Origin: an uncultured Bacteroidales bacterium
GTDB lineage: Bacteria > Hydrothermota > 32-111
Direction: 5' to 3'
NCBI GenBank assembly: GCA_964544145.1
Contig: CAZJAT010000004.1
Span: 16,177 to 80,176, forward strand
Length of the DNA stretch: 64,000 nt
The position numbers and the translations under genes were made by a program. The notes beneath the pieces are model-generated. The model was not told the DNA's origin. It saw nothing but the letters and a program-made list of their open reading frames with translations, and did no database searches. Below are positions 1,147 through 31,583 of the stretch, piece by piece. Numbering within the stretch: the first letter of the stretch is position 1; each line of letters starts with the position of its first letter.

Positions 1147-1523
1147 TGAGCAGAATAGGCACATTTTTCAAGGCATATTGGAAGATTTTTCTATATTTCC
1201 TGGGTGTCTTGCTGCTTATATGGATTGCATTTCTCCTTCATATTGATAAAAGGGTTATCGCTTTTTCTGTTATAATCATCGGATTTATCACACAATTATT
1301 TGCTGAAATTCTGGGTATTGTGGCTCTAATACCTATTTTAGGTCCCGTACTTGTCAAGATAATTTCATTACCATTTATAATCATTATTAATGGTATTGGC
1401 TATATAGTTACTTTTTTTGCATTCAAGAAGGGATACAAGGTTGAAGTGGCAAAATCAAAGATGTTTACTACAGCATTACTGATTGGAATTGTATTAGGTT
1501 TTATATTGGGGAAATTATTATGA
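1146..1523 (+). CDS. small polytopic membrane protein (3-4 predicted TM helices), GTG start
   Basis: The protein is hydrophobic throughout, with a GTG start at 1146. It is coupled to the downstream gene by an ATGA overlap at 1520-1523. Confidence 0.4.
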   Translation: MSRIGTFFKAYWKIFLYFLGVLLLIWIAFLLHIDKRVIAFSVIIIGFITQLFAEILGIVALIPILGPVLVKIISLPFIIIINGIGYIVTFFAFKKGYKVEVAKSKMFTTALLIGIVLGFILGKLL

Positions 1524-7300: not shown

Positions 7301-7674
7301 CATTCTCAGATGTGCAGGGGAATCCGCTGATAAGGGATTCATTCGCAATGATATTCACAAGAGATTTACCTGTTATGATGACAAAATTCAGCAATGAGAA
7401 ATATACAGGCACCCATGCACCTATACTCATGTCGGGAATAATGTACAGACAATCTACAAGTTTCATTATCGGTGTATTTGAACCCGGTATATATGAAATC
7501 AGATTATATGACATAGCAGGCAGATTACAGTCAGAACTTTATTCCGGATTTCTGAACAGAGGTAATATTGTTTTGCCAAATACTGCAGAAACTGATGGTA
7601 TTTATTTTATTACAATGTCAGGTAATAAAGGAACAGTCCTTTCCCGAAAAATCATTATACTGGGTGAGCATTAA
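4282..7674 (+). CDS. C25 (gingipain-like, clan CD) cysteine peptidase with a T9SS C-terminal sorting domain, of PorU-like size
   Basis: The His-Gly/Ala-Cys dyad context is LLFYTGHGLTYEWNG ... FIFSFACLTGNY. The C-terminal CTD motifs are GIYEIRLYDIAGRL and GIYFITMSGNKG...KIIILGEH. An N-terminal Sec-like signal (KTYRFKNSFVRLLLAFGLWCGILTSALIINA) is encoded in a 100-nt out-of-frame overlap with the preceding gene. The next in-frame ATG is at 4681 and would remove that signal. Confidence 0.55.
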   Translation: MVCHIEVGCCKTYRFKNSFVRLLLAFGLWCGILTSALIINADIIDPVYHIEEDGNYSFIRGEYQLIAERPGYPAIPVIRLNLSRGSEISYFKIIETDTILLSLPLVPIGEYIEKKSELQNIYIPDKELYIEDRMLIRTDYNEYTMGKGKIVELFPFNYNPSENMLIVNKIEIHYSSIPALPEISDNNIVIIYNEQFSDIYDETESFFIRRGKIPYMYSMTQTGRTADSIGIFIDSIFSEKPFSYLLLMGSSSMLPGNWGLGDGNPYTDLSYALIDTLDYLPDIILSRLPFDSSAQFLHYYNKMEQSMNANALTMRDNAYFMASNDYGYHTLAESTQIYSMEKFRAIDYETDSLFYYYNTGTPVDEAIDEGRALLFYTGHGLTYEWNGPSFDRDDIDSLKNAPFYPFIFSFACLTGNYYYGGFFGNHWLKLEDKGAIGFMGSSKETFWEQDDLFQRFMVDSLVQGDYIFNAVNKGKINFFNYYGNSSVTRRYFEQYNYFAVPDIYVGNTDVSNISISVDRYIPLSSGNIDCTIGYDGILGEPGFLVVCGDSLIDSSRISAQGEYILNHSILLSDTLALSLYIPGQQLFKEDIVLIDNGPFVALKDQFISDIKTDTLFIDMDIKNYGNNTAYNISSYMKHLPIYMTVLNNSIYIDSMLPESIESIGDALVLLTGDNSGSGADTLCTLGFVFDYDTVFSVFSVADLAPSFDAVFIEAICTNDTSSSITLGIATDIFFQVRNTSKIKAKNISITIDGEFNTVYSSGECDSLLSMQTFNPAFGIIVEDSEDDEVIINMTVSMGSYSEGKIFRIPLKLKNSYSFIGPMSGYYIYTSDMIDLENRPEFKDIRSDSSGWSLIDVRDDETVSLSLPFTFKTGDDSFDILYLNANGIISTDSIESSLFGVTALPNSGITGKAFIFGWHDFRFPELTYISDYLGDLRGSALYKINALNTEFQILYNRVTDYNNDTFTFSVCIDTTNILINFYEIPYDNNLVNGIQFSNSEYISFTGDSFSDVQGNPLIRDSFAMIFTRDLPVMMTKFSNEKYTGTHAPILMSGIMYRQSTSFIIGVFEPGIYEIRLYDIAGRLQSELYSGFLNRGNIVLPNTAETDGIYFITMSGNKGTVLSRKIIILGEH

Positions 7675-15571: not shown

Positions 15572-15919
15572 ATGCTTATTAAGGTAATTGAGAAAAAGAA
15601 TAATAAGACTGTTTTTGAAATAAAGGCTGATGATAGTCAGTTTGAATCTATTATGAATATGATAAAAAATAATTATCCTGCTGATCATTTCCAAATCACA
15701 ATTGACAATATGCATAATGATGCAGATACAGGCAATATTCATGATGCTTTTAAGTCTATTATTCCTGTAATTACAATATTCCTTATTCCAATATCCAATA
15801 TAATTGTGATTATTTCAATATTCTTGCTGAAGGATATGAGTCAGAAGATTATAGGTTCTGGAGCAGCAGCAATTATCTTTCTGATATCAGTTATTCTACT
15901 GCTGAGAGGCAGGAAATGA
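15572..15919 (+). CDS. hypothetical small membrane protein (soluble N-domain plus 2 TM)
   Basis: The C-terminal half is hydrophobic. An ATGA overlap couples it to the GT4 gene at 15916. Confidence 0.35.
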   Translation: MLIKVIEKKNNKTVFEIKADDSQFESIMNMIKNNYPADHFQITIDNMHNDADTGNIHDAFKSIIPVITIFLIPISNIIVIISIFLLKDMSQKIIGSGAAAIIFLISVILLLRGRK

Positions 15920-17031
15920 ATATTCTTATAATCAATTGGAGAGACATGAAAAATCCTCTCTATGGAGGAGCCGAGATACATATGGAGAAGATAGCTCAGT
16001 ATCTAGGCATGGAAAATAATATATATTACCTGACTTCCATGTATAATGGTGCAGATGAAAGGGAAACAATTGACAATATTCACTATATTCGCATTGGTAA
16101 TGAATATTTATTCAATTTTGCGGTTATGATGAATATCAAAGGCCTATTGAGAGAAATTCAACCGGATATTATTCTGGAGGATATCAATAAGGTGCCATTC
16201 TATACCCCTTTATTTACAGATATTCCTGTGATTGCTGTTATTCCCCATATATTCGGTAAGACAATATTCAGACAAACAGGTCTTATCCCTGCCCTGTATG
16301 TGTATATAATGGAGATGCCCTTAAAACATGTGTATAGAAGAGCTTACTATGAAGTGATTTCACAGTCCACAAAAGAGGATTTAATAAGGCGCGGCATTGA
16401 CGGAAACAGAATCAAAGTGATTGAATGCGGTATAGATAGAGATTATGAATATCTGTCAAAAATTGAGAAATTTGAATCGCCTGTTATGGTTTATATCGGC
16501 AGATTAAAAAAATACAAATCCATTGAGCATATAATAGAAACAATGCCGAGACTGAAGACCGTATTCCCTGATATAAGATTGATAATAGCAGGAAGAGGGG
16601 ATTATGAGGAAAATTTGAAAAGAAGAACAAGAGAACTGAATGTAGGTGACTATGTTGAATTCAGGGGATATATAAGTGAGGATGAGAAATGGGAACTTCT
16701 CAGAAGAGCATGGGTATCTGTATATCCTTCACTTATTGAGGGATGGGGTATAGTCAATATTGAAGCAAATCTTGTTCATACACCTGTAATATGTGCAGAT
16801 GTACCCGGATTGCGTGATTCTGTTAAAAACGGATATTCAGGATTGCTCTATGAGTATGGGAATACGCAGCATATGGCAGAGCAGATTATCACATTATTTG
16901 ATGAATATAATTATAAAAACTACTGCAGGCAGGCTTATGAGTGGTCAAAACATTTTAATTGGCAATATACAGGAAAGGCAACAGAAGAATTTATTCAGCA
17001 GACACTTGAAAACTGCCCTATTATCAAATAA
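15916..17031 (+). CDS. glycosyltransferase family 4 (GT-B, group 1)
   Basis: The EX7E region is LIEGWGIVNIEA. The length and layout are typical of GT4. Confidence 0.75.
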   Translation: MNILIINWRDMKNPLYGGAEIHMEKIAQYLGMENNIYYLTSMYNGADERETIDNIHYIRIGNEYLFNFAVMMNIKGLLREIQPDIILEDINKVPFYTPLFTDIPVIAVIPHIFGKTIFRQTGLIPALYVYIMEMPLKHVYRRAYYEVISQSTKEDLIRRGIDGNRIKVIECGIDRDYEYLSKIEKFESPVMVYIGRLKKYKSIEHIIETMPRLKTVFPDIRLIIAGRGDYEENLKRRTRELNVGDYVEFRGYISEDEKWELLRRAWVSVYPSLIEGWGIVNIEANLVHTPVICADVPGLRDSVKNGYSGLLYEYGNTQHMAEQIITLFDEYNYKNYCRQAYEWSKHFNWQYTGKATEEFIQQTLENCPIIK

Positions 17032-17095: not shown

Positions 17096-18502
17096 ATGAG
17101 AAAAATATATATTTTTCTATTATTTATTACTGCATATATTACTGTATTAGCTCAATGGTCTTCCATCAGAACTGTATGGTTTTATGCAAATGCATATTTT
17201 CCTCCGACATCAACTCATGTTGCAGGTGTGGATACTTCAGGTAATACATATCTTGTCTGGCATGACCATATATTTGAGTTTGAATTTGATATTGTGCAGC
17301 ATAAGTTTAATGGTACAAGCTGGTCAGGCTGGCAGAGAGTAGATGATGCATTATCCGGTCAGGGATATTACGGACTTTCGAGAATGCCGTCTATCTCAGT
17401 AGAACCTGATGGTAAACGTCTGATTGTCTGGGAGGATATGAAAACAGGATATTTTGAATTACATTCCAAATATTACAATAACATTGATATACCTTCCCAG
17501 AGGCAATTGACTGACGACAGTGCTTATACTTGGTATCCTAAATTACAGTATGCAGATAACAGGCATCATCTCTTCTATATAGACAGTAAAAGCGGAGTAT
17601 TTAATATTTATTACAATTATTATGATTCATTATGGCATAATGAAGAGCATGTGATTGCAGTAGATAGTGCATGTAATGATTTCTCATTCTATGCTTACAA
17701 TGATTCAACAATGGTGCTTTCTTTTCTGATGAAACCTTATGAATATGACAATCTCTATTATTCAGTTAAATCAAATGGCATATGGAATACGCTGCATCCC
17801 CTGTTCACAGGGAATTTTGATGTAACTTATCCGAATATAATAAGTAATAGCACCAACACGTTTATTCTGTTTACTGCTAATATTAATGGTCTTTATCAGC
17901 TTTTCATGTCAAAATTCAATGGAATATCATGGTCAATGCCGGAGCTGATAAGCAATAATGAGACAAATATCATGCATCCTACAGGTATTATCAATGGCAA
18001 TGATTTTCACATATTTTTCATTTCAGATGAATTCCCTAATGGTATTATCAAACATTCTGTTTATGATATTATCAGTGACAGTATTGTAAGCACAGAAACA
18101 GCAGTGGAGGTGAGAGAGGGACCGATATATTCACCCAAAGTTGTTATTGATTCAAATGGCAATCTTCAGCTGATGTTCACATGTGCTGATGGCGAAAGGA
18201 CTTCAAACAGGGGGCCGAACAATATCTATCATCTTACTCTGAGCGGAGTTAAGAGCAATATTACTGAAACTGTTAAACCATATGCTTTGAGCAATTATGG
18301 GAATTATTATAGTATATCAATGACAGATGATAATGATTACTCTATAAGCATACTTGATAAGACGGGCAGATGCATTGCTGATATGCCGGGTGATAAGAGA
18401 CTGATACTTGATAATAGTTATTTTAAACGCAATGATATATATTTTCTGATAATAAAAACTAATAAAAACATTTACACTGAAAAGGTCTTATGGTTAAACT
18501 GA
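17096..18502 (+). CDS. secreted Trp/Tyr-rich beta-propeller-like protein with a T9SS CTD-like C-terminus
   Basis: The signal peptide is MRKIYIFLLFITAYITVLAQ. Repeated NG(T/I)SWS, GIWNT elements are BNR/propeller-like. The C-terminal SISILDKTGRCI and IYFLIIKT...KVLWLN look like CTD motifs D and E. Confidence 0.45.
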   Translation: MRKIYIFLLFITAYITVLAQWSSIRTVWFYANAYFPPTSTHVAGVDTSGNTYLVWHDHIFEFEFDIVQHKFNGTSWSGWQRVDDALSGQGYYGLSRMPSISVEPDGKRLIVWEDMKTGYFELHSKYYNNIDIPSQRQLTDDSAYTWYPKLQYADNRHHLFYIDSKSGVFNIYYNYYDSLWHNEEHVIAVDSACNDFSFYAYNDSTMVLSFLMKPYEYDNLYYSVKSNGIWNTLHPLFTGNFDVTYPNIISNSTNTFILFTANINGLYQLFMSKFNGISWSMPELISNNETNIMHPTGIINGNDFHIFFISDEFPNGIIKHSVYDIISDSIVSTETAVEVREGPIYSPKVVIDSNGNLQLMFTCADGERTSNRGPNNIYHLTLSGVKSNITETVKPYALSNYGNYYSISMTDDNDYSISILDKTGRCIADMPGDKRLILDNSYFKRNDIYFLIIKTNKNIYTEKVLWLN

Positions 18503-21500
18503 GAATATCCTTACTGATTTTTGCTGTTGTCTATTTGAGTGTAATGGCAGATTTTTCAATTATCAGCAATGAAGGCAATAATATCTCTGTTTTTTACAAT
18601 GGTATTTACAGTGAAGGCGGGAAAGCAATAATATTGCCTCCGAATGATAATTATTCAATCTCCGTATCTCCATCAAATGCATTTGATAAAAATCAGTATA
18701 GAGCAATTTATTCAGGTGATATGCATTTGCTGCCTCTTCCACAGACTGATGAGGCATACACAATTAGTGTAAATTATGATAATACAAGGGTGTTTGGAAA
18801 GAGGATTATTCCTGAAAGCGATATAATGTCTTCATTTTCAGACATAATTATTAATAGTGAGAATATTGCGGAGTTTATCAAACCGAGAACGCCTATTCAT
18901 TTTAAAGCTTCATATACAGGATTGCCTGTATTGAAAATGAGGATAGACAGTAGTGGAATATACAGGGTATATTACAGTCAGCTCAATGCTGTGACTGATA
19001 TTGAGCTTTCAGGGATTAACCCGCGAAACATACAGCTGTTTTGCAAGAATAAGGAAATACCTTTATATATTAGCAATATTGCTGATTCTTCATTTAATGC
19101 AGGTGATTTCATTGAATTCTTTGCAGAGAGGAATGATGGAGAAGGATACCGTTATTTTGATAAATACAATATTGAAAATGTATATATACTTACAGTGGAA
19201 GGAAATCCGGGTTCCAGATATGTTCAATTCACATCAACCATTTCACATGACTCATTGATAGCAGCGAATATAGAATCTCATTACAGAACAGTTCATGTTG
19301 AAGCAGACAGTTTCTTCTACAGATTCCAGACAGTATCTGCGGATACCAGTGATTTTTGGTTTGACAGATATATGAATGACCCGAACACATATGATATAAA
19401 TATTGATTTAAATGACAGAATTGCGGACAGTCCTTTAATATTGACATCATATTTACATGGTGTATCCCATTTGGGTATAAACCCTGACCATCCGCTTGAT
19501 ATATATATGAATGACAGCATCATAGAATCAATCAATTGGAATGACCAATTGCCTTATTATTATAAGAGTGATTCCATTGTTCTTCCGGATACAAATGAGA
19601 TATGTGTAACATATCATGTGAAATCAATTCCGGGAGATACATCAAGCAGTGATTCCCTTCTGTTCAATGATATAATGCTTAATTGGACAGAATTGACATA
19701 TGAGAGGGCATTGAGGCCTGAAAACGGTTATCTGGTTTTTTCAATGGATCCGAGAGAAGGATATGGCAGATTCAGATTCCGGATTACGGGTTTTGCCAAT
19801 AGCAATGTTGAAATTCTACGAAAAGACTTAAAGAGAATTATCGGTTTCAATGTATTATATGATACACTTACATTTACATATACTGTAATCTTTGAGGATG
19901 ATATATATACCACGGGTGTTCAATATGGTGTTTATGAAAGATCAAATTTGCATACACCCGATGAAATTGAAAGATATGAATATGCAGATTTAGCATCATC
20001 GCTGAATAGGGGTAAATTTGTTATTATATGTCCTCAGGAATTAAAAGAGGAATCTGCTGAGATAGCCAATCTATTTGATGAGGATGTTTTTATTGCCGGA
20101 ACGGAAGATATCTATAATGAATTCTCAGATGGATTTGTACGTCCATCGGGAATAAGGGATTTCCTTCGTGCGGCATATAATAATTGGGAAATAGCTCCGA
20201 CACATGTTCTTCTGCTTGGGGATGCTTCCAGAGACCAGAATAATCATTTAAACAAAAAACAGTATTATATACCTAATGGATATGTATACGGTCTAGTGGA
20301 TTTCGGCTATTCATGCTCAGATAACTATTATGGCAGAGTAGTGGGTGAGGATGTACTTGAAGATATCTCTGTATCAAGATATCCGGTTAAAACAATAAAT
20401 GATATTTATAATCTCAAATCAAAAATTATTCACTACACAGATCCTCGAAATATGGGTACGCATTATCTGAGAGCTTTAATGGTCTATGACACCACAGAAT
20501 ACATACGCAGTGAAAATGATTCAAAAACGCTGGGAAGTATGCTGCCTTTTTATCTCTATCCCAAATATATGCACACATTCCAAAGCTGGGGCCCCGATTT
20601 TATTCCGGAACTGTATAAAGGTGCATTTGTAATGAATGTGCTTGCACATGGAGCAATACGTTCAATTGGCTATGGAATGTATTTGAGGATTTTTGATGTA
20701 TATAGATATAACAACATATCCCGTCTGCCGCTTGTCAATGTTTTTTCATGCAATACAACGGAATTTGATTTTGTTGCTCCAGATACTATATCAATAGGTG
20801 AAGCATTTGCAACTGCTCCAGGCGGAGGCGCTATTGGATATTACGGAGCAACCGGGACATCAGAAGCAGGTGTCAATTTTGTTTTATCCAGAGCGATATT
20901 CAGACAGTTTACTGAAAAGGGATTGAAAAATATTGGTGATATTCTCCGTATAGGGGAAACAGAATTTTTCCTTGAAGCCAGCAATAATAATCCATACAAT
21001 TTTTTATATTATAGGTCTCAGGAGATAATGAATTATAATCTCCTTGGCATTGGTTTTCTTGATCTCAATATTCCCAAACCTTCAAATGATGAACTGTTAT
21101 TATCAAGTGAAGACCTGGGAGCCGGGGATACTCTGACTGTAGAACTCAATTCTCAGCATATTCAAAATGGCAATATGGAAAGTATAATTCTGGATATTGA
21201 CAAAAACGCTATTTCACATAATCACAGCGAGATATTTGATTCTACCGGGACAAACAATCTTATAATGCCTGATACAGTTAATATCGGTTCAATGACAGTA
21301 TTGACAGTTTCATCATCATCAGACACATCATTATTACAATATGCTTTTCCCTCTATAGGACGTGTCGGCATGTCAACTTTCGGTATGCTGCCTGCTGAAC
21401 CGGATACAAGTAGCAGATTTATTATATATGCAAAGATCAAGAATGCAGGTGCGCTTACAGAGCAGTATGCATATTATAAAAAGGAAACAGCAGGAAATTA

Positions 21501-22977
21501 TACATTTGTTTTACTGAAAAGGGATTCCAGTGATACAACCATGTTCAAATCAGATTCATTGGGACCGCTGACAGCCGGCTCATCAGATTATAAATTTCTT
21601 TATTATATATCAATGAAAGACAGCACCAGCAATATAATAAATTCTGCTAAAAAATATTATTTAGTGAAATCCCTTCCTGATTTCGGATTGAAGACAAACT
21701 CATTGGAGATAAATTCTGTAAACAGAACACCGGTAATTGAATATTATATTGAAAACTTCAGGGGCCTTTCCATACCGGGATTTGCGGTTGAGTTTTATGA
21801 AATCGGCACAGATTCAGCTATCATAACCATTGATTCTATTGCCGGTATAAATGAAATACTTTCAAAGAATTATGCTACTCTTAATGAAGATGTCTATTTA
21901 AATGATTTTACTGTGACAATGGATATCTATAATCAAATCAATGAAGCTGCTGAAGATAATAATAAAATAGTATTTGAAAATTATGACCATCTGATTATTT
22001 TAATCGATGATGATGTTGAAGATAAAAATCCGGATTTTCATCTATTGTCAGCTGATATTGAAGACAGATTCAGTAATCTTGGGTCTTTCTTATGTTTTTC
22101 AAGGAATGAATTCACTGATTCATTAAGCACTATGAAGATGTTTTCTGAAAGTGATGGAAATGTATATGAATATAATATTTTTAATGGCGATACAGTAAAA
22201 TGTGATATTAATCTCTCATTTAATGATTCCACGCTTAATGATGAAGATTATAATTTATATGCTTATGATTTTAATGACAGTGTTTATGTGAAGGTATCTG
22301 ATATTCTGGATTATGTGAATGTAAGTCTTAACACCGGTCTTAATAAGTTTACAATTGCAGATCACACAGATTCATTATCACCATATATAGCAATACTGAT
22401 TGAAAACAGTGATTATGTGGGCAATGTAATATTATCCGAAGAATGTGAATTATCATTTGTTATTGAGGATGAGAGCGGAGTAAGACCGGATGATATAACT
22501 ATCATTCTAAATAATGATACATTGACGCGGGGTGAATATTCAATATCAGAGAACACTGATATCAGAAATATTCCAATACAGATGACCAAAAACCTTGATG
22601 ACGGGATATATGATATTACTGTTATCGCAAAGGATATTTACAGTAATGAAAGCACTGAAATAATGGAGTTTAAAGTTGCTCAGACATTTGCAATACTGTC
22701 TGCAGCAAATTTCCCCAATCCTGTTTCAGGCTCATCCACTGTTTTAGCCTGCAGGCTGACTGAAAATGCAGATGAATTAATATTTCATTTATTTGATTCA
22801 TCAGGCAGAAAAATAAGACAACAATCATTTATTCCGGGTAGCGATAATATTTTCACATATGATTTTGATGTTTCAAATTTATCAAATGGAACGTATTTAT
22901 ATTACTTTGAAGCATATAAGAATGGCGGCAGTGAAAAAGTTAAATCAAAGATTCAGAAAATGAGTGTGCTTAAATGA
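18490..22977 (+). CDS. 1495-aa C25-like (clan CD) peptidase-domain protein with a T9SS CTD, a PorU-like candidate
   Basis: The signal peptide is MVKLRISLLIFAVVYLSVMA. The His-Gly/Ser-Cys dyad context is MNVLAHGAIRS ... LVNVFSCNTTEFD. The C-terminal region FPNPVSGSSTV...IFHLFDSSGRKI...GTYLYYFEAY is a classic type-A CTD. Confidence 0.55.
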   Translation: MVKLRISLLIFAVVYLSVMADFSIISNEGNNISVFYNGIYSEGGKAIILPPNDNYSISVSPSNAFDKNQYRAIYSGDMHLLPLPQTDEAYTISVNYDNTRVFGKRIIPESDIMSSFSDIIINSENIAEFIKPRTPIHFKASYTGLPVLKMRIDSSGIYRVYYSQLNAVTDIELSGINPRNIQLFCKNKEIPLYISNIADSSFNAGDFIEFFAERNDGEGYRYFDKYNIENVYILTVEGNPGSRYVQFTSTISHDSLIAANIESHYRTVHVEADSFFYRFQTVSADTSDFWFDRYMNDPNTYDINIDLNDRIADSPLILTSYLHGVSHLGINPDHPLDIYMNDSIIESINWNDQLPYYYKSDSIVLPDTNEICVTYHVKSIPGDTSSSDSLLFNDIMLNWTELTYERALRPENGYLVFSMDPREGYGRFRFRITGFANSNVEILRKDLKRIIGFNVLYDTLTFTYTVIFEDDIYTTGVQYGVYERSNLHTPDEIERYEYADLASSLNRGKFVIICPQELKEESAEIANLFDEDVFIAGTEDIYNEFSDGFVRPSGIRDFLRAAYNNWEIAPTHVLLLGDASRDQNNHLNKKQYYIPNGYVYGLVDFGYSCSDNYYGRVVGEDVLEDISVSRYPVKTINDIYNLKSKIIHYTDPRNMGTHYLRALMVYDTTEYIRSENDSKTLGSMLPFYLYPKYMHTFQSWGPDFIPELYKGAFVMNVLAHGAIRSIGYGMYLRIFDVYRYNNISRLPLVNVFSCNTTEFDFVAPDTISIGEAFATAPGGGAIGYYGATGTSEAGVNFVLSRAIFRQFTEKGLKNIGDILRIGETEFFLEASNNNPYNFLYYRSQEIMNYNLLGIGFLDLNIPKPSNDELLLSSEDLGAGDTLTVELNSQHIQNGNMESIILDIDKNAISHNHSEIFDSTGTNNLIMPDTVNIGSMTVLTVSSSSDTSLLQYAFPSIGRVGMSTFGMLPAEPDTSSRFIIYAKIKNAGALTEQYAYYKKETAGNYTFVLLKRDSSDTTMFKSDSLGPLTAGSSDYKFLYYISMKDSTSNIINSAKKYYLVKSLPDFGLKTNSLEINSVNRTPVIEYYIENFRGLSIPGFAVEFYEIGTDSAIITIDSIAGINEILSKNYATLNEDVYLNDFTVTMDIYNQINEAAEDNNKIVFENYDHLIILIDDDVEDKNPDFHLLSADIEDRFSNLGSFLCFSRNEFTDSLSTMKMFSESDGNVYEYNIFNGDTVKCDINLSFNDSTLNDEDYNLYAYDFNDSVYVKVSDILDYVNVSLNTGLNKFTIADHTDSLSPYIAILIENSDYVGNVILSEECELSFVIEDESGVRPDDITIILNNDTLTRGEYSISENTDIRNIPIQMTKNLDDGIYDITVIAKDIYSNESTEIMEFKVAQTFAILSAANFPNPVSGSSTVLACRLTENADELIFHLFDSSGRKIRQQSFIPGSDNIFTYDFDVSNLSNGTYLYYFEAYKNGGSEKVKSKIQKMSVLK

Positions 22978-23939
22978 AAAATATTTTTATAATTTTAATC
23001 ATATGTCCTATATTTTTATTCAGTACAGAATCTTTTCTGGATATTTACATGTTTTCATCAGGGGAAGCAAATGCAGGGAACACTTTCTCAAGCACAGGCG
23101 ATTATATTGCAGTAAATAACCCTGCGGGTAATTTGAATGTGATGACATTTAAAATGCTCTATGAACATAAATTCCTTATGGATAATATCAGCTCATACAA
23201 TGCAGCATCAGTAACAATACCTATATTCAATACTATAAGTACAGGTATCTCTTATATAAATCAGAATATTGATAATATACCCATTTACGGCGAATATCCG
23301 GGTAATCCGGATTCACTGGATTTTGAACCGCTTGGTTATTTCAGTGATAATGCTCATGCATTTTATTTCAATATTGCTTATACTTATGTGCCATCACTAT
23401 ATACAGTATATGAATTGGCAGTGGGAACAAATATAAAATATATATATCATAATATTTATAATAATACCGGAATGGGTTCAGGATTTGATATTGCAGCAGA
23501 TTTACTGCTGTATATGAATAGAATAAATTATAAATGGATTGGATTAATGGACTTTTTCATAATAATGCAGGATGTGGGAACAACCGAAATTAAATGGAAT
23601 ACACTTAGTGAAAATATTGACCAGAGAGGGTATCAACTAGTAACAGGTATAGGATATTCACTGCCTGTTGATGTGCTAAAAACAGAGTTTAATACAGAAG
23701 TGAATGCTAAATACGGAAGGAACAATGGAATGGGCGCTGCGATAAGTATGAATTATAACAATATGGCAGGTATAACTACAGGAATCAATTATGAGGAAGG
23801 ATTGAACAATTACTCATTTAGTGAACCGCGAGCCGGTGTTTTTATTCTATTCTCGGGATTTGAGGTGCATTACAGCATATCATCATCAGAATTAGGTTTG
23901 AATCATTCAGTAACAGTTGGTTATTCATATGATAAATAA
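22974..23939 (+). CDS. predicted outer-membrane beta-barrel protein coupled to the upstream CTD peptidase (PorV/PorP-like candidate)
   Basis: An ATGA overlap at 22974-22977 couples it to the upstream gene. It has a signal peptide and alternating hydrophobic and Tyr-rich strands. The N-terminal GEANAGNTFSSTGDYIAVNNPAG is reminiscent of the PorV N-terminal NPA region, which I recall only vaguely. Confidence 0.35.
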   Translation: MKNIFIILIICPIFLFSTESFLDIYMFSSGEANAGNTFSSTGDYIAVNNPAGNLNVMTFKMLYEHKFLMDNISSYNAASVTIPIFNTISTGISYINQNIDNIPIYGEYPGNPDSLDFEPLGYFSDNAHAFYFNIAYTYVPSLYTVYELAVGTNIKYIYHNIYNNTGMGSGFDIAADLLLYMNRINYKWIGLMDFFIIMQDVGTTEIKWNTLSENIDQRGYQLVTGIGYSLPVDVLKTEFNTEVNAKYGRNNGMGAAISMNYNNMAGITTGINYEEGLNNYSFSEPRAGVFILFSGFEVHYSISSSELGLNHSVTVGYSYDK

Positions 23940-24867
23940 GGAATCAGTTCTCAAGATTACTGATAAGAATAATTTTCTTGTATTTGCAGGCACAAATGAA
24001 GACAATATAAAATCAATATTGTCAGCTATAAAGGATAAATATGTTGATCCGTCATTTGAGGATTTGGACTATATTGAAATATATGGTGATGAATTCAATA
24101 TGGAAGAGTTCTCACAGTCGGCAATGGCTATGCCAATGATCTCAGCAAAGAAGGTAATAGTAGTTAGAAATGCTGTACGATTGAGTTCAGCAGATGCTAA
24201 GGATCTCAATAAAATCGCGGAGAGTATGAGCGAAAGCGTAGTACTTGTTCTGATTTATGTTGATCCGAATAAATACCATTCTCAGATAGTCAGGCAGTCA
24301 GAGGATTTATTCCAAAATGCTAAGATAATACTTATGGCAAGAGAAAGACAATTAACCTTTGATGACATCAGGGTCATTTCATCTGAAAAAAATCTCAATT
24401 TAAGTGAAAACGCAATAAGAAGAATATTAGATATCTCTGATTCTAATCCGGATATTGCAATGAATCTGCTTAATACTGCATGGATGCTTAACAATAATGA
24501 ATCATTTGACAGTATGATAGAGGATAAATCAGGATTTGAAATTTATCCTACTATGCATAATGAATTTCTCAATTTTTTTTCAATGTATCAAAAGGAAAAA
24601 TGTTTTGAATTCTACAGACGTTTAATAAAGTGGCATGTGATTTCCCCGGAGGGTTTAATCATGATATTATTGAGTCATATTGAAAAAATGAAAAAATCGG
24701 CCTGTGGGAATGGAAATATAAGGTATAATAAAAATAAATGGAATTTATCTGAAATTGACAGGGCATATTATTTGTTTTATAATGTGCTTAGAAATTTCAG
24801 AACAATCAAAAAAGAATATGCAATTTTATCATTTGAACAGGTGCTCTTAAACGTATTAAAAGCTTAA
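23917..24867 (+). CDS. holA: DNA polymerase III delta subunit
   Basis: The N-terminal layout matches HolA from memory: LVFAGTNEDN..., IEIYGDE..., KKVIVVRNAVRLSSADAKDL, VVLVLIY. The start may instead be the MINK codon at 23929. Confidence 0.5.
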   Translation: MVIHMINKESVLKITDKNNFLVFAGTNEDNIKSILSAIKDKYVDPSFEDLDYIEIYGDEFNMEEFSQSAMAMPMISAKKVIVVRNAVRLSSADAKDLNKIAESMSESVVLVLIYVDPNKYHSQIVRQSEDLFQNAKIILMARERQLTFDDIRVISSEKNLNLSENAIRRILDISDSNPDIAMNLLNTAWMLNNNESFDSMIEDKSGFEIYPTMHNEFLNFFSMYQKEKCFEFYRRLIKWHVISPEGLIMILLSHIEKMKKSACGNGNIRYNKNKWNLSEIDRAYYLFYNVLRNFRTIKKEYAILSFEQVLLNVLKA

Positions 24868-24876
24868 GGGGGAAGT

Positions 24877-25803
24877 ATGGACCTAAGAGAATTATTGTCA
24901 GCAAAAGAGAGTGTTAAGGAAAAATTAGAAAAACTGGAACACATCAAGTCGGATATAAGAGAAGCTGTGTATGACAAGATTAAAGCTGAATATACAGAAA
25001 AGATGACTGAAATTGACAAGGCTATTGATGAGAACAAATTACAGGTTGAAGAAGAGCTCAGCAGCATTAAAGAGGAAATAGCTGAGGTCAATTCATTCCT
25101 TGAGAAATACGAATCAGAATATGAGGAAATCAGTGTTCGCATCCAGATTGGAGAATTCAGCGAGGATGAGTATGGTGAAAAAAGGGATGAATTGAAAAAT
25201 CAGATTGACATGTACATAATGAGGCAGAAAGAATTGAATCAGAAAATGGCAGAATTGGGTGTGACTGGAGATGCAGAAGAATTAGAGGAAAGCAGTCTTG
25301 ATGATACACAGAAAGAAGAGGATATTGAATCGGTATTTGATGAGATAAGCACACTTGAAGAAAAACCCGATTTCAGTACTGAAATTGTTGAAGATGAAAC
25401 GGATGTTGCTGATAACACGGAACCAGAAATTATGCCTGATTTTAATGCTGAGATTACTGAATCAGAAGCTGTTGATTTATCTGAAAAGGATAAAGATGAT
25501 GCGGCATTTGAACTGGCAACTGATTTGACACCTGATGTTGAAGAGGAGAAGAACCCATTCGAAGATGCATTGAAGGATCCGATTAATGATATATTACAGC
25601 CTATTATCACTGAGGAATTTAATGAAAATGAAAACAGTGACGGCATACAGCCGATAGAGACCAATTTGAATGAGTTTTTCAATGCAGCAGAAGAAAATGA
25701 TGAAGAGCAGAATGACATTGAGGGTATTACATGCCCAAAATGCGGTCATGTAAATAATCCTAATTTGATGAATTGCGAAAAATGCGGTGCTGAGCTGTTC
25801 TAA
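24877..25803 (+). CDS. highly acidic coiled-coil protein with a C-terminal double-CxxC zinc ribbon
   Basis: The N-terminal 130 aa have coiled-coil heptad character. A D/E-rich low-complexity centre follows. The C-terminus is CPKCGHVNNPNLMNCEKCGAEL. Confidence 0.5.
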   Translation: MDLRELLSAKESVKEKLEKLEHIKSDIREAVYDKIKAEYTEKMTEIDKAIDENKLQVEEELSSIKEEIAEVNSFLEKYESEYEEISVRIQIGEFSEDEYGEKRDELKNQIDMYIMRQKELNQKMAELGVTGDAEELEESSLDDTQKEEDIESVFDEISTLEEKPDFSTEIVEDETDVADNTEPEIMPDFNAEITESEAVDLSEKDKDDAAFELATDLTPDVEEEKNPFEDALKDPINDILQPIITEEFNENENSDGIQPIETNLNEFFNAAEENDEEQNDIEGITCPKCGHVNNPNLMNCEKCGAELF

Positions 25804-25820
25804 ATAATTATTAATAATTT

Positions 25821-27182
25821 ATGAGATTACGTCATGCACCTCTATATACAATAAGCATATATATAAACACCATACTTGCAGCATTGCAGGGTATTGTGGC
25901 AGCAACCCTTTTAGATCCCTATTATATGGGCTATTTCTCACAGATTAAGGTAATACTTGCTTATTTAATGATGATTAATGTCGGTTTTATAAATGGTTTG
26001 CTCATTGTACTTCCCAAATCAGACAGACAAACGCAGCAAGAATATATTAATGCAGGTTTCTGGATGAGCCTTGCATTATACTCATTGGGTGCATTTGTTT
26101 TTCTGATTCTTTATTTTATTATGCATGAGAAGTCATTTCTCTTTGTAGCCATTGTATTCCCCATATATGGCATAAAAGAGATACCGATATATATAATGAG
26201 AGGAAAGGGTGATTTTAAGAGTTTGTCCATAATGTATATCATATCATCAATAGTATCCTTTGCCCTTATAACAGGTTTGATTTATTATTTCAAGTTCATA
26301 GGTGCATTGGGAGCTCTCTCCTTAACTGTCATTCTAATGCTTGTGCTGGGCCTTGGAGTCGGGAAAATCAGGGTTTCACTCAAAATAAAAAAACAACGAA
26401 TAGTGGGGCTTTTCCGGAACGGCATATTTATATATATAAAGGATTTTTTCAGATTTCTGAAGAGTTCAATGGAAAAGCTTATCATGATGTTTATTATGCC
26501 AAAAGAGGTTTATGCAGTTTACACTGTCGGCATTGTGATGATATCATTTTTTGATATTCTACCATCAACAATATTTCAGTATCTGCTTCCGGATTTTATC
26601 AGAGAAGGGACAAAATGGTCTGAAGAAAGAATGTCAAAAACTATTTCCATAATTACATACATAATGACTGTCCTTCTTCTGGGAGGTATATATGTGTTTT
26701 CAATGCTTATACCAAAGATTCTTCCTGCTTACACATCATCCCTTATCATTTTTTATTTGTTAACATTCACATGTTATATAAATATATGGAATTATATAAT
26801 ATATAATAAATTTGTTTCAGAAAATAAGATCAAATATATGTATGCATCACAATTCATCGGCTTATTTGCATTACTTGTTTCAATTGCTGTCTTCTATGGA
26901 TTAATGAATGTGAATGTATCAGATATGATTTTCGCCGCATATTCAATACTTATAGCAAGAACTGCCTACATAATTTCACTTATAATCATATTCAGGGCAA
27001 GTACAAGTCTTAATCTATTTACACCCGAAACAAGTATAATCAGCGGAAGCAGTATTCTGACTATTATAGCTGCGCTTCTGCTTGTATCCAGAAATATACA
27101 TATAATTCCTCTTCTCCTTTTTGCATACAGTATAATATATTTTAAAAGGCTTAGGGCATGGATACGAGAATTGACATTATAG
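25821..27182 (+). CDS. polysaccharide biosynthesis protein / oligosaccharide flippase (Wzx, MOP superfamily)
   Basis: A 453-aa protein with about 12-14 TM helices is followed by glycosyltransferase genes. Confidence 0.5.
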   Translation: MRLRHAPLYTISIYINTILAALQGIVAATLLDPYYMGYFSQIKVILAYLMMINVGFINGLLIVLPKSDRQTQQEYINAGFWMSLALYSLGAFVFLILYFIMHEKSFLFVAIVFPIYGIKEIPIYIMRGKGDFKSLSIMYIISSIVSFALITGLIYYFKFIGALGALSLTVILMLVLGLGVGKIRVSLKIKKQRIVGLFRNGIFIYIKDFFRFLKSSMEKLIMMFIMPKEVYAVYTVGIVMISFFDILPSTIFQYLLPDFIREGTKWSEERMSKTISIITYIMTVLLLGGIYVFSMLIPKILPAYTSSLIIFYLLTFTCYINIWNYIIYNKFVSENKIKYMYASQFIGLFALLVSIAVFYGLMNVNVSDMIFAAYSILIARTAYIISLIIIFRASTSLNLFTPETSIISGSSILTIIAALLLVSRNIHIIPLLLFAYSIIYFKRLRAWIRELTL

Positions 27183-28024
27183 TAGTTGCATATAAGAATA
27201 TTCAGCGTTTTATGAAGAAGAATTATTCACTTATTTCAGATAATAATATTAGGATAATTATTGCTGACAATAACAATAATAATATTAAGGAATGCAGGAA
27301 TGATAATGTAATATATGTAAATATGGGTGCAAATATGGGATATGGAACTGCAGTTAACAGGGTTCTGAAATACTCCAAAAGCAAATTTGTTATGATTTGC
27401 AATGATGATATTGTGTTTAAAAAGGATTTTTTTACAACAATATACAGAGAGATGGAATTTTATGAAAGGGGCAATATAGGATTAATAGGATTCAATGTAA
27501 TTAGTGAGAAAACGGAAAGAAGGGGATTACACAGACAATTATACAGCATTCCGCTTATTTTATTCCATTTTTCAATTTTTCCTCTCATATTATCGCTTTT
27601 TTCCAGGGGGAATGGATACATTGGAGGATATGAAACCATTCATTATCATAAATCCTCAAAATATGTGAAGGGCGTCTCCGGCTCCTGTTTTATGTGCGGC
27701 AGGGATATACTTCTTGGTTTAGGCGGTTTTGATGAGAAATTTTTCTTGACATATGAGGAAACGGAATTATTCAGGCGAGTACTAAAAGCGGGATATCTCA
27801 TATATTATGAAAGCAGCGCAATTGTATATCACAAACATGGCTTTTCAGCATCAGGTATATCCTTAAGAGAATCATACAGGTCAATGCATGTTTATCTTGA
27901 AAAACACTATCCAAAATGGGCAGTTATATCAGCTAAACTATATATATTTATATGGCTGTCAATAAGGGCACTTTTTTCAAAAAAGAAGAGAAATGAAATT
28001 AAATACTTTCTGCTTAAACAATAG
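27158..28024 (+). CDS. glycosyltransferase family 2
   Basis: It has the N-terminal GT-A layout IDIIVVAYKN ... IIIADNN ... MICNDDIVF, which contains the DxD motif. Confidence 0.6.
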   Translation: MDTRIDIIVVAYKNIQRFMKKNYSLISDNNIRIIIADNNNNNIKECRNDNVIYVNMGANMGYGTAVNRVLKYSKSKFVMICNDDIVFKKDFFTTIYREMEFYERGNIGLIGFNVISEKTERRGLHRQLYSIPLILFHFSIFPLILSLFSRGNGYIGGYETIHYHKSSKYVKGVSGSCFMCGRDILLGLGGFDEKFFLTYEETELFRRVLKAGYLIYYESSAIVYHKHGFSASGISLRESYRSMHVYLEKHYPKWAVISAKLYIFIWLSIRALFSKKKRNEIKYFLLKQ

Positions 28025-29324
28025 AAACAGATTTATACTTCTATCTGTTATCAATGCTGTAATAATTACTATATCTCTAATATTGGGCAATTATTCATTA
28101 CTGATTCTTGCAGTTTTCCTGTCATGTGCAGCAATGTGGAATATCAGTAAAAACAATCACACTGTATTTTTCAGCATATTGCTTTTCTATGGTTTATTTT
28201 CAAGGATTATCAGTTATTATTTCCCTGCAGAATATAATCCAATATTCCTGTTCACAGCATTTTATCTGATACTGTATGGAGATCATATAATCAGCAGACT
28301 GATGAATCTGAGAAAAAAAACATGGGCAGGCATCATTGTTTACACATGTATTGCACTTTTCTACACAATATGCATAAACAAATCCTATATATTTACTCAA
28401 ATGATATCTTTTAATATAATGATACTACCTGTATTTGCAGTACTGCTTATAAGGGAAAACAGGGAATTGATAGACATTATTATATATTCAGCTCCATTAA
28501 TCCTGATTTATTCAATATTTCAGTATGGAGGCGCTTTTTTTCAGTCAGATGCAGTTTGGATTGCAGAAAATGCGTTAAAAACATATGATTCCATGAAAAT
28601 TGCAGGTAATTTAAGGCCATTCTCTGTATTTTCGTCAGTAGAGGAATTTGGATTTTTTCTGATGATATTGGCTATACTGCCATCGTACAGGAAAAGCAGG
28701 TATACATTCTCTTTATCGGCAATTTCAGTTATTATGCTTTTTATATATTCAATAAGATTGCCTCTTATAATGATAATTGTATTTGCAGTGTATTATATGC
28801 TAAGAAAGAAATATTATCGTGCAGTTCTAATCTGTATAAGTGCTATGCTTCTGATAACTGTTATCCTGAATATAATCCCATTTAAGGAAAAACTGCATGT
28901 CAGCGAAACGGGACCCAAGGTTTTCATAACTCATTCATTAGAACCATTCAGGAATATCTTTTCATCATATTCGTTTAAAAAAAGAATTGAATATTTTTCC
29001 GAGAACTCTATCAATTTCATTAAATATCCCTGGGGTATGGGTATTAACAATAATCCGAGAATTCTTGTTCACAATAAAAATATATATGACTCAGAAAGTG
29101 CATTTATGATGCTCATACTTTCCTGTGGAATACTGATGCTAATATTTATAATTGCAGTGTATGTAAATTTGATTAAAAAAGTTATTTTCGGAAGGATGAA
29201 CTTTATACTGTATTTAACATTCCTTGGATTATTTATGCTTGTATTCTCTCATGTATTATCTTTTCATTTTATCAATTTGATTTATTATTATGCAATAATA
29301 AGGAGTATTGATGATAGGTATTGA
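27993..29324 (+). CDS. O-antigen polymerase/ligase-like polytopic membrane protein (Wzy/WaaL family candidate)
   Basis: A 443-aa protein with 10 or more TM helices and a larger loop, lying inside a glycosyltransferase cluster. Confidence 0.4.
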   Translation: MKLNTFCLNNRNRFILLSVINAVIITISLILGNYSLLILAVFLSCAAMWNISKNNHTVFFSILLFYGLFSRIISYYFPAEYNPIFLFTAFYLILYGDHIISRLMNLRKKTWAGIIVYTCIALFYTICINKSYIFTQMISFNIMILPVFAVLLIRENRELIDIIIYSAPLILIYSIFQYGGAFFQSDAVWIAENALKTYDSMKIAGNLRPFSVFSSVEEFGFFLMILAILPSYRKSRYTFSLSAISVIMLFIYSIRLPLIMIIVFAVYYMLRKKYYRAVLICISAMLLITVILNIIPFKEKLHVSETGPKVFITHSLEPFRNIFSSYSFKKRIEYFSENSINFIKYPWGMGINNNPRILVHNKNIYDSESAFMMLILSCGILMLIFIIAVYVNLIKKVIFGRMNFILYLTFLGLFMLVFSHVLSFHFINLIYYYAIIRSIDDRY

Positions 29325-30570
29325 AATACGGGACAGACAGGATGAAAATGAACACAAGGCAATAACAATTACTGATGAGTATACAGCTAAATATCCCGAA
29401 AAATCATATATGCGTTACTCATTTCTCTGGGCAGCATTCAATACGCTTAATAACAGTGAATTTAGAGTCAGGAAAAGGGAATATAAAAAATTTATTTTCG
29501 CAAACAATATATCCGTTAATAAGCGTTATTTTATAAATTGGGGTATTGATAATAAGAAAATACTCAATCAGTTTGAAAGGGCCGGCTATTCGGCAATCAA
29601 AATTAAATTGACCCAGAGAGCATTCGGCTTAATGATTAAGAACACAATATATTATCCCATGCATAGAGGAAGATATAAAAGTTCTAATAATCAGGATGCC
29701 TCCATTGAAGAGAATTTTAATTCAATTGAAGAGAATATGAAGTATGATGAAGTACATTTGAGGAACTCATTCAGAACACTGATGGAAGGCAAGAGACCCG
29801 AATTTATAATAGTCAATGAAGACAGAACAAAGTATGTAAGGTTATTGATTGAGACAGCAGGTGCTCTGGGTATAAAGGTTTTCACAGTTCAGCATGGTCT
29901 GACACCTATTGTAATGGACAATCATATACCATTTGCCAATGAATCATTTGCTCCTTTGAATGGGGATTACATATGCTGCTGGGGAGAAAATTCTAAAAAA
30001 TATCTTATAGATAATAATGTGCCGCAGGAAAAAATTATTATCACCGGAAATGCTGATGCGGACATTCATGTAAAGCAGACAGAATCATCACATAGGCGTA
30101 TTCTCGTTATTGATCAGCAATATATCGGCCAGGATGAGGAGATGATATATACATACAATAAGCTTCTCAAATGCCTGGATTCAAATGAAATTGACTATTA
30201 TATATATATGAGAGGACAATATAATTATGATTATTTAAAAAATGTCTGTAAACCGGGAAGCCTTATTAAATGGCAGAAGGGCATGATACATCATTATATG
30301 AATTTGGCTGACAAAGTAGTCGGATTTTATTCAACAGCAGTTTTGGAATCACTGTTATCAGGTACTGATGCTGTTTCATTTGATGCTTTGCAGAGAGGAG
30401 ATGTAATGGGATTTAAAGAATCGGGAATCCCTGTAGTATCAGATTGCAGAGAACTGGCAGACATATTAGCAAGCGGTCCATTGAAAAAAACATATCTTGA
30501 TAATCATTTCAGTCAAATAAGCGATTATGCAGCGAAGAATATTTTTGATGCAGTAATGGAACGGATATGA
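29308..30570 (+). CDS. hypothetical polysaccharide-cluster protein (possible GT-B-fold / capsule biosynthesis-type transferase)
   Basis: It is a soluble 420-aa protein coupled to the flanking GT genes. I recognise no signature motif with confidence. Confidence 0.3.
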   Translation: MMIGIEIRDRQDENEHKAITITDEYTAKYPEKSYMRYSFLWAAFNTLNNSEFRVRKREYKKFIFANNISVNKRYFINWGIDNKKILNQFERAGYSAIKIKLTQRAFGLMIKNTIYYPMHRGRYKSSNNQDASIEENFNSIEENMKYDEVHLRNSFRTLMEGKRPEFIIVNEDRTKYVRLLIETAGALGIKVFTVQHGLTPIVMDNHIPFANESFAPLNGDYICCWGENSKKYLIDNNVPQEKIIITGNADADIHVKQTESSHRRILVIDQQYIGQDEEMIYTYNKLLKCLDSNEIDYYIYMRGQYNYDYLKNVCKPGSLIKWQKGMIHHYMNLADKVVGFYSTAVLESLLSGTDAVSFDALQRGDVMGFKESGIPVVSDCRELADILASGPLKKTYLDNHFSQISDYAAKNIFDAVMERI

Positions 30571-31583
30571 ATATTATTTACCTAGATTTTGCTTTAAACA
30601 GAGGGGGCGCAGAGGTGTCCCTTGAGCATTTAATATCTGCATTAAATCCGTTTTACAGACAGGTGGTATATGCACCTACTGATACAAAATTAACAAGAGA
30701 ATGTATTGATTTGGAGCATTTAGAGTGTAATAATAAAATATTCAATATAAAACGGTTTTCACCATTCTCTCTGTTTGCTGTGATTCAATTGATTGTAATT
30801 TCAAGAAGAATAGATAGAAAGGGCATTATTGTATCTAATACATATAAAGCTCATATAACAGGTATGGCATTGAAATTATTGTTTAAAAGAAAATGGGTTC
30901 TTATTGAGAGGGATATTGCAGAAAATAGGGCAGAAAAGATTATGAAGCGGATATTATATCATATAGCAGATAGAACGGTTTTTGTCTCAAATTTCTGCAG
31001 GTATACAAATGGCGGAAAGGGAATTGTGATACACAATATAATTAAAATATGCAGAAATGATGAGAAAAAAAAGTATATATTATATGCGGGTGATTTTACA
31101 AGGGATAAGGGTTTTGACAGGATAATTGATATAATGGATTCCCCGGTTCACCAGTCTGCGATGAAATTTGCCGTAATGGGCAAAGTACCCGAATACAGCA
31201 ATGAGCATTTTGAAATACCGGGCCATGTTGAACATATTGATTATAATTACAATCCATACAGCATTTTGAGAAAAACTGCAGCAATACTCATGCTTAACAG
31301 AAAGGCGGAAAGTTTTTCAAGGGTTACTGCTGAGGCAATGGCATGCGGGGCAATACCGATTGTGATTAAGGGTAATGGTATGGATGATTATGTGAAAAAC
31401 GGAAAAAATGGGATTGTATTAGATCTTTATGATAGAGAAAGCGTGTATTCTGAGATTGGCAAATTATTCAGTAATGAAAATATTAGAAAACGATTGTCTG
31501 CAAATGCAATTAATTCAATCAGTCACTTTAATGAGAATAATGCTGTAATAAAGTGGAAAGAGATGTTTTCAGAAATGATCTGA
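30567..31583 (+). CDS. glycosyltransferase family 4
   Basis: The EX7E region is RVTAEAMACGAIPIV. An ATGA overlap lies at 30567. Confidence 0.65.
   Translation: MNIIYLDFALNRGGAEVSLEHLISALNPFYRQVVYAPTDTKLTRECIDLEHLECNNKIFNIKRFSPFSLFAVIQLIVISRRIDRKGIIVSNTYKAHITGMALKLLFKRKWVLIERDIAENRAEKIMKRILYHIADRTVFVSNFCRYTNGGKGIVIHNIIKICRNDEKKKYILYAGDFTRDKGFDRIIDIMDSPVHQSAMKFAVMGKVPEYSNEHFEIPGHVEHIDYNYNPYSILRKTAAILMLNRKAESFSRVTAEAMACGAIPIVIKGNGMDDYVKNGKNGIVLDLYDRESVYSEIGKLFSNENIRKRLSANAINSISHFNENNAVIKWKEMFSEMI

Follow-up and report, generated by a model that had tools for sequence, protein, structure and literature searches.

What is encoded by two overlapping genes of an uncultured bacterium, the first specifying a giant C25-like protein (A) and the second a small outer-membrane β-barrel (B)? 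The genes lie in a 64,000-nucleotide (nt) stretch of DNA (GenBank assembly GCA_964544145.1, contig CAZJAT010000004.1, positions 16,177 to 80,176; hereafter the window). An earlier note on this DNA left a choice between a divergent sortase/shuttle pair from the secretion system known as type IX (T9SS), resembling PorU and PorV, and a cargo protein accompanied by a dedicated PorP/SprF-like barrel. Our results support the sortase/shuttle reading. The PorU homology of A, the PorV/PorQ-family membership of B, and the conserved coupling of their genes make it probable that the two are the counterparts, in the candidate division WOR-3, of the T9SS attachment pair formed by PorU and a PorV/PorQ barrel. 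The pair and its junction are as follows (aa, amino acids):

18490..22977, plus strand: gene for protein A, 1495 aa, a PorU-type C25 cysteine peptidase and putative T9SS C-terminal signal peptidase/sortase.
22974..23939, plus strand: gene for protein B, 321 aa, a compact PorV/PorQ-family outer-membrane β-barrel predicted to have about 14 strands.
22974..22977, plus strand: 4-nt ATGA in which the stop codon of A and the start codon of B overlap, coupling the two genes; read from the sequence.

Word-indexed and exhaustive protein searches revealed orthologues of both proteins, with full-length A orthologues in 10 WOR-3 loci. Across the related loci, A orthologues were 34–59% identical over full-length alignments and B orthologues were 32–51% identical. 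These loci belong to WOR-3, one of them bearing the older label "TA06"; WOR-3 is a member of the Fibrobacteres–Chlorobi–Bacteroidetes (FCB) superphylum and lies outside Bacteroidota. The gene order was collinear in each distinct related locus: a GT4-family glycosyltransferase, a protein of ~470 aa with a T9SS C-terminal domain (CTD), A, B, holA, and a zinc-ribbon protein. The A/B order and the ATGA overlap were kept in all intact related loci and also in an outgroup locus (L014). Because orthologues with the same order and overlap occur in all intact loci, A and B are real genes rather than chance open reading frames (ORFs).

The coordinates of both ORFs, their 1495- and 321-aa products, and the ATGA overlap were exactly as described in the earlier note. 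Its statement that the genome uses Shine-Dalgarno sequences is plausible, as Shine-Dalgarno-like 4-mers preceded 20 of 36 ATG-start ORFs in the window, whereas a control position inside genes gave 8 of 36. The window is AT-rich (G+C ~34%). In one locus from the WOR-3 metagenome-assembled genome CSMAG_462 (L007, 1216..5700), the A orthologue is broken, with the longest ORF stopping at 4797 and homology running on to 5700; this break is either a frameshift/pseudogene or an assembly error.

We compared A with curated families and solved structures. Its best NCBIfam model was PorU (NF033707; 199.1 bits), with A residues 148–835 matching model positions 8–721, such that the match starts well ahead of the catalytic domain; an A orthologue (P0009) scored 197 bits on this model. 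On the PorU2 model (NF052324; cut-off 450), A scored 121 bits. The catalytic features of A are:

20017..21048, plus strand: Peptidase_C25 catalytic domain, residues 510–853 (Pfam PF01364, E 1.2e-47).
20647..20649, plus strand: predicted catalytic His720 (LAHGA), invariant in orthologue alignments and aligned with the His of PorU "GHGG" and RgpB "GHGS"; codon checked.
20749..20751, plus strand: predicted catalytic Cys754 (FSCNT), invariant in orthologue alignments and aligned with the Cys of PorU "ATCD" and RgpB "VACV"; codon checked.

The clan-CD His-Gly/Ser-Cys dyad proposed in the earlier note was borne out, as H720, G721, S753, and C754 were invariant in the 10 WOR-3 orthologues. Rather than being lost on alignment, which would have spoken against the proposal, H720 and C754 aligned with the catalytic residues of PorU, whose positions we took from alignment to 6za2, and of RgpB, which we take to be His211 and Cys244.

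Since single-sequence searches of the PDB gave nothing useful with A and matched no solved structure with B, profiles were needed for the structure comparisons of both proteins. A profile of the catalytic region, built from A and its relatives, matched Porphyromonas gingivalis PorU (6ZA2) first (175 bits, E 2e-50), with RgpB (134 bits) and Kgp (88 bits) behind. A profile from the WOR-3 orthologues alone also matched PorU best in the PDB (E 1.5e-19, compared to 1.8e-8 for RgpB) and was collinear with it, A residues 490–821 corresponding to PorU 387–756 and A residues 1366–1494 to PorU 1016–1154. Outside the catalytic domain, three further regions of A could be delimited:

18931..19959, plus strand: PorU-type pre-catalytic module, residues 148–490, from a WOR-3-only profile of residues 130–490.
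21067..22584, plus strand: expanded middle region, residues 860–1365, with Ig-like/CARDB-like domains.
22585..22974, plus strand: last Ig-like domain and putative type-A CTD, residues 1366–1495 (CTD ~1408–1495), aligning with PorU 1016–1154.

The WOR-3-only profile of residues 130–490 matched the equivalent region of the PorU-type proteins P0010 (E 4e-42), P0013 (E 5e-38), and P0011 (E 2e-37), the last of which exceeds the NCBI PorU cut-off; the direct match of this region to 6za2 was a non-significant stretch of 22 residues only. The module separates PorU from the gingipains and, by profile comparison, is present in A in place of the gingipain propeptide. At the other end of the protein, the alignment of A residues 1366–1494 to PorU 1016–1154 includes the PorU CTD (independent E value 0.007), and a C-terminal profile of A had a T9SS CTD (8glj_D) as its top PDB match (E 0.023). 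Pfam Por_Secre_tail matched A residues 1408–1478 with E 7e-5 and 23.5 bits, under the gathering score of 27, and also matched 3 of 10 A orthologues. The motifs FPNPV, NGTY.YY, and KSKIQKMSV are conserved at the C termini of the orthologues. Thus, the "classic CTD" of the earlier note is present, as judged from its conserved motifs and its alignment to the PorU CTD, but its score is marginal, below the gathering threshold; we regard A as carrying a putative type-A CTD on modest support. PorU itself keeps its CTD (A1054-Q1158) after secretion (PMC11285876).

A also departs from PorU in size. Its N terminus is ~110 residues longer, and its middle region spans ~506 aa compared to ~222 aa in PorU (lengths between alignment anchor points), with a CARDB domain at residues 1064–1159 (E 1.5e-3), a weak Big_13 match (both Pfam), and a CARDB-like PDB match (3idu). 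These ~280 extra residues of Ig-like/CARDB-like domains are typical of surface enzymes and adhesins. Together with a PorU score under the curated cut-off and the presence of true secreted proteases in the C25 family, they could point to a large gingipain-like T9SS cargo protease, with B as its private anchor or carrier and no part in general cargo processing; dedicated carrier barrels adjoining cargo genes are known, as for SprB/SprF (PMC10994853). We consider this distinctly unlikely. PorU came ahead of the gingipains in every comparison, A has the PorU pre-catalytic module and no match to the gingipain propeptide domain PF08126 (Pfam, E<=0.1), its C terminus aligns with the CTD that PorU retains, and B, described below, belongs to the PorV/PorQ rather than the PorP/SprF family. 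Moreover, the pair is single-copy and strictly conserved beside housekeeping genes in all WOR-3 loci, resembling a core function. We conclude that A is, by sequence, a PorU-type C25 enzyme, homologous to PorU over three separate regions and with its dyad intact.

Searched alone, B matched only the NCBI PorV2 model ("PorVQ2", NF052325; 31.8 bits, E 7e-8). A word-indexed search with B found just six relatives, while 299 cluster representatives, most of them 300–360 aa long, came from an exhaustive profile search. Along with B, the 100-sequence family alignment contained six close relatives from the WOR-3 clade and 93 matches at greater distance. PorV2 was matched by 92 of these sequences, the PorV/PorQ family model by 91, PorQ by 88, PorV by 74, and PorP/SprF (TIGR03519) by 3. 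On these family grounds, with B itself giving no PorP/SprF match at E<=0.1, we rejected the identity of a PorP/SprF "dedicated carrier", the form that the earlier note had given its cargo-plus-barrel alternative. The searches with hidden Markov models (HMMs) that the note had proposed gave PorU as the best model for A and PorV2 as the best for B, both at scores below the curated cut-offs.

The 100-sequence profile, compared against the PDB, selected Flavobacterium johnsoniae PorV (6H3I chain F) with E 5.5e-22, and FadL/TodX-type channels came next (E 4e-4 or worse). Alignment of the six WOR-3-clade barrels with 40 non-WOR-3 members using hhalign gave 100% probability and E 1.5e-46 over 273 columns. 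The fold predicted for B, which we compared against the PDB, was a FadL-like outer-membrane barrel with a terminal aromatic-rich strand, and its count of about 14 strands is that of PorV. Could B be a FadL/OmpG-type small-molecule channel that has no secretion function and lies beside A by chance? This is highly improbable, since the profiles favor PorV over FadL-type channels by 18 orders of magnitude, 91–92 of the 100 aligned sequences match the PorV/PorQ-family and PorV2 models, and B remains ATGA-coupled to a PorU-type gene as A identity falls from 59% to 34%, an arrangement that recurs in the outgroup. We conclude that B is a member of the PorV/PorQ family with a predicted fold of roughly 14 strands.

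The resemblance of the N-terminal region of B to PorV, remarked in the earlier note, held up in the family-profile alignment, where the B motif FLD...GE..GN......NPAG (in general form, FL..G....G...NPA) aligns with PorV "FLLVAADARAAGLGD...WNPA". One loop of B also aligns with PorV:

23256..23294, plus strand: most conserved loop of B, INQNIDNIPIYGE, residues 95–107, aligning with PorV residues 110–120, including Phe115.

Columns I95-N98, I99, I102, P103, and E107 are invariant in this loop. In the substrate-bound translocon, PorV N87 and F115 contact a conserved lysine of the CTD, Phe115 through its backbone (PMC10994853). Since the loop of B aligns with this CTD-contacting segment, CTD binding equivalent to that of PorV may be its conserved function. 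B is ~80 residues shorter than PorV, and the family-profile alignment leaves PorV residues ~245–321 almost unmatched. Its length is like that of PorQ and PorV2, its genomic position is like that of PorV, and its model scores are too low to discriminate among subfamilies. No second such barrel was found in the 64-kb window or in any related locus, each of which has one.

Two results set A and B apart from PorU and PorV. With 199 bits, A misses the curated PorU equivalog cut-off of 420, reaching under half of it, and B misses every curated cut-off (PorV/PorQ family NF033709, 90 bits; PorV, 250; PorQ, 220; PorV2, 325). The B orthologues likewise reached at most 37 bits on any curated model, and one had no match. 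Since both proteins fall far under the NCBI cut-offs (199 of 420 and 32 of 325 bits), annotation pipelines call the pair "C25 peptidase" and "hypothetical"; in public records these proteins are "C25 family cysteine peptidase", "hypothetical", or unnamed.

A further possibility is that A and B are an accessory, paralogous pair of the PorU2/PorV2 type, serving some of the cargo or a distinct glycan anchor, with the main PorU and PorV encoded elsewhere. PorV2 is the best model for B and for most of its orthologues, B at 321 aa is closer to the PorV2 and PorQ model lengths (354 and 335) than to those of PorV (367–402), A does match PorU2, and the PorU2-like proteins P0013 and P0019 are likewise encoded among glycan genes. 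However, the PorU model fits A better than PorU2 does (199 compared to 121 bits), the B scores (<=37 bits) are too low to tell subfamilies apart, and the PorU2-like outgroups have no adjacent barrel. In addition, neither a second barrel nor a second PorU-like gene was found in the 64 kb or the related loci, the second C25 protein of the window scoring 21 bits on PorU. We therefore regard an accessory pair as unlikely and favor the counterparts of PorU and the PorV/PorQ barrel.

A mechanism for this favored pair can be proposed from work on P. gingivalis and F. johnsoniae (PMC12365241, PMC11285876, PMC10994853). PorU removes the CTDs of cargo, joins cargo to glycolipid by transpeptidation, keeps its own CTD, and binds PorV (PMC4560394, PMC11285876, PMC12365241). 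By analogy, A would be exported by Sec and then pass through the T9SS via its own CTD, which it would keep and by which it would be seated on barrel B. B would be translated from the mRNA of A through stop/start coupling, favoring matched amounts of the two proteins. Once on the surface of the cell, A would use its His720/Cys754 dyad to cleave CTDs off other T9SS cargo, and it might also transfer cargo to a surface glycolipid by transpeptidation, like P. gingivalis PorU. Binding of A to B, retention of the A CTD, and sortase rather than plain peptidase chemistry are the steps for which this proposal leans on PorU.

The gene directly upstream of A, translationally coupled to it, is a possible third member of the unit:

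17096..18502, plus strand: up468, a secreted protein with a predicted seven-bladed β-propeller (~residues 25–385) and a C-terminal β-sandwich/CTD (~residues 396–466).

It overlaps the A start by 13 nt in the window and by 13 or 31 nt across the related loci. Its predicted model is confident (pLDDT, predicted local distance difference test, 83) and comprises the seven-bladed propeller and the C-terminal β-sandwich; Por_Secre_tail matched 5 of 8 up468 orthologues. The nearest folds were carbohydrate-active or carbohydrate-binding propellers: GH145-type hydrolases, rhamnose-glucuronate lyase, sialidases, and PLL lectins. PorZ was missing from both nearest-fold lists, and no structural or sequence similarity specific to it was found. 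Because PorZ appears in neither list, a PorZ-like role would be an architectural analogy only. We treat up468 as a candidate that may be a third partner of the pair or may be cargo.

These observations allow a bolder proposal, to which we assign a low probability: that WOR-3 has a pared-down attachment module encoded as one coupled unit, consisting of a single-propeller glycan-binding CTD protein, a PorU-type sortase, and one compact barrel serving as both PorV and PorQ. If so, the propeller would functionally replace PorZ, the unit would sit within a conserved glycan-synthesis neighborhood that makes the anchor, and the module may represent an ancestral attachment complex that predates the duplication giving rise to PorV and PorQ in Bacteroidota.

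The surroundings of the pair are also conserved:

15916..17031, plus strand: GT4 glycosyltransferase, the conserved upstream neighbor (Pfam Glycos_transf_1, E 1.4e-38).
23917..24867, plus strand: holA, DNA polymerase III delta (TIGR01128, E 2.7e-17), overlapping the end of B.
24877..25803, plus strand: highly acidic protein of 308 aa, resembling a coiled coil and with a C-terminal CxxC...CxxC zinc ribbon, at the same position in all related loci.
25821..31583, plus strand: conserved downstream run of surface-glycan genes, encoding 453- and 443-aa multi-pass membrane proteins, a GT2 glycosyltransferase, a 420-aa protein, and a GT1 glycosyltransferase.

GT4 orthologues, 53–57% identical, lie upstream in 9 loci, and an orthologue of the 443-aa membrane protein is weakly Wzy-like. 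In every locus (L001–L013), the 3′ end of the B gene overlaps or directly adjoins holA (1–4 nt); in the window the overlap is 23 nt by the longest ORF, which has a TTG start. As this arrangement recurs in every locus, a replication gene is apparently cotranscribed with secretion genes throughout the lineage, and holA is probably an operon passenger. A 159-aa antisense ORF (25239..25718) within the zinc-ribbon gene is probably a low-complexity artefact. The glycan run is followed on the minus strand by a dcw cell-division cluster (ftsZ, ftsA, mur genes, and a penicillin-binding protein).

To what extent do these arrangements extend beyond WOR-3? Outside WOR-3, A has its closest relative in P0010, encoded at L014, which scores 345 bits on PorU; its locus has a CTD protein before it and, after it, a 349-aa PorV/PorQ-family barrel with an ATGA overlap. 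The other three outgroups examined had no adjacent barrel. Seen in only one of four outgroups, adjacency of a PorU-like gene and a barrel gene was rejected as a general feature outside WOR-3. PorU-like genes adjoin glycan-synthesis genes in three other lineages too. At L015 (P0019) and L017 (P0013), giant PorU2-like C25 genes that lack an adjacent barrel gene have glycosyltransferase, WecA-like, and epimerase genes directly around them. Since in P. gingivalis cargo is joined by PorU to A-type lipopolysaccharide (A-LPS) (PMC4560394), these surroundings are suggestive, and they hint at a recurrent link of PorU-like sortases with glycan-synthesis loci. By the same analogy, up468 or the neighboring glycosyltransferase genes might have a role in supplying the anchor. 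PorU-like genes beside glycan genes are thereby a testable lead on the origin of the surface anchor for T9SS cargo in WOR-3 and other lineages.

Elsewhere in the window, four genes merit mention:

1520..4381, plus strand: 953-aa protein that unusually combines a peptidase MA-like (HExxH-type) N terminus, TolB/PD40 propeller repeats, and a weakly Omp85-like C terminus.
4282..7674, plus strand: second C25 protein, 1130 aa, with a T9SS CTD (TIGR04183 cut-off passed) and its GHG and Cys motifs kept.
50516..51691, plus strand: 391-aa member of the TIGR00375 family, weakly matching the anti-phage protein Ppl (E 5e-8), in housekeeping surroundings.
55595..57559, plus strand: 654-aa protein whose terminal type-A T9SS sorting domain exceeds the TIGR04183 cut-off (31.5 bits), likely T9SS cargo.

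We considered whether the 4282..7674 gene encodes the real PorU and rejected this, as its product has a PorU model score of 21 bits, is without the pre-catalytic module, and showed no similarity to A in a pairwise BLASTP comparison. The product is probably a gingipain-like protease, secreted as cargo. Since the longest ORF of this gene shares ~100 nt with the gene before it, its true start may be later. At least three CTD-bearing candidate cargo proteins are encoded in the window, lending indirect support to the presence of a T9SS. The remainder is mainly housekeeping genes (among others pckA, arcC, an ackA-like gene, the dcw cluster, and tRNA-modification genes), and the window contains no tRNA or Rfam features. 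No T9SS core genes (sprA/sov, porK/L/M/N, porT, or porW) were found among the ~37 of 49 window ORFs of at least 150 aa that were scanned.

Work on the T9SS has been almost wholly on Bacteroidota, and many papers still confine the system to that phylum. The literature does acknowledge, for instance in PMC11205867 and PMC12398890, that it occurs beyond Bacteroidota yet within the FCB superphylum, and no paper in the literature we searched mentions WOR-3 together with the T9SS. The pair extends the known T9SS to a new lineage; it is no new kind of system and does not overturn current understanding. It indicates that the coupling of PorU and PorV genes has been kept in a deep lineage of the FCB superphylum that is uncultured, at a divergence so great that curated models miss the pair. 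Improved HMMs for T9SS attachment components beyond Bacteroidota could be built from the orthologue alignments, and the compact barrel and enlarged sortase are natural variants for probing which PorV loops and PorU domains are essential.

How do A, B, and up468 compare with known systems? The SprF/PorP carriers resemble B in that a small barrel gene lies immediately downstream of a gene for a large CTD protein, but their cargo has type-B CTDs while that of A is type-A-like (Por_Secre_tail). The putative second sorting pair PorU2/PorV2 (NF052324/NF052325) likewise combines large C25 proteins with compact barrels, although A and B score far under the cut-offs of 450 and 325; our literature search found no publication describing it as such a pair, its matches being incidental uses of the strings. 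PorZ of P. gingivalis (5M11), which presents A-LPS and is anchored by PorQ, is a β-propeller ending in a T9SS CTD, like up468, which is encoded with a sortase-type gene and whose propeller resembles glycan-binding and glycan-processing propellers. PorV (LptO; F. johnsoniae and P. gingivalis; 6H3I chain F, NF033710) and PorQ (NF033711) share with B the 14-strand barrel and the FL..G....G.....NPA motif, and PorV has in addition a CTD-contacting loop that aligns with the ..DDIP-type loop of B, a terminal aromatic-rich strand, and a gene beside a PorU-type gene. F. johnsoniae PorV has 402 aa compared to 321 in B, which is closer in length to PorQ and PorV2; the departure of both proteins from canonical sizes, already remarked in the earlier note, extends to A, at 1495 aa compared to ~1156–1158 in PorU. 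PorU (PG0026 of P. gingivalis; 6ZA2, NF033707) comes from Bacteroidota, while A comes from the phylum WOR-3 and its enzyme activity is predicted from sequence. Nevertheless, A has in common with PorU the C25 domain, a His/Cys dyad set within GHG and (S/T)C motifs, the pre-catalytic module, the terminal Ig-like domain and type-A CTD collinear with PorU 1016–1154, and a gene placed directly upstream of one for a PorV-family barrel.

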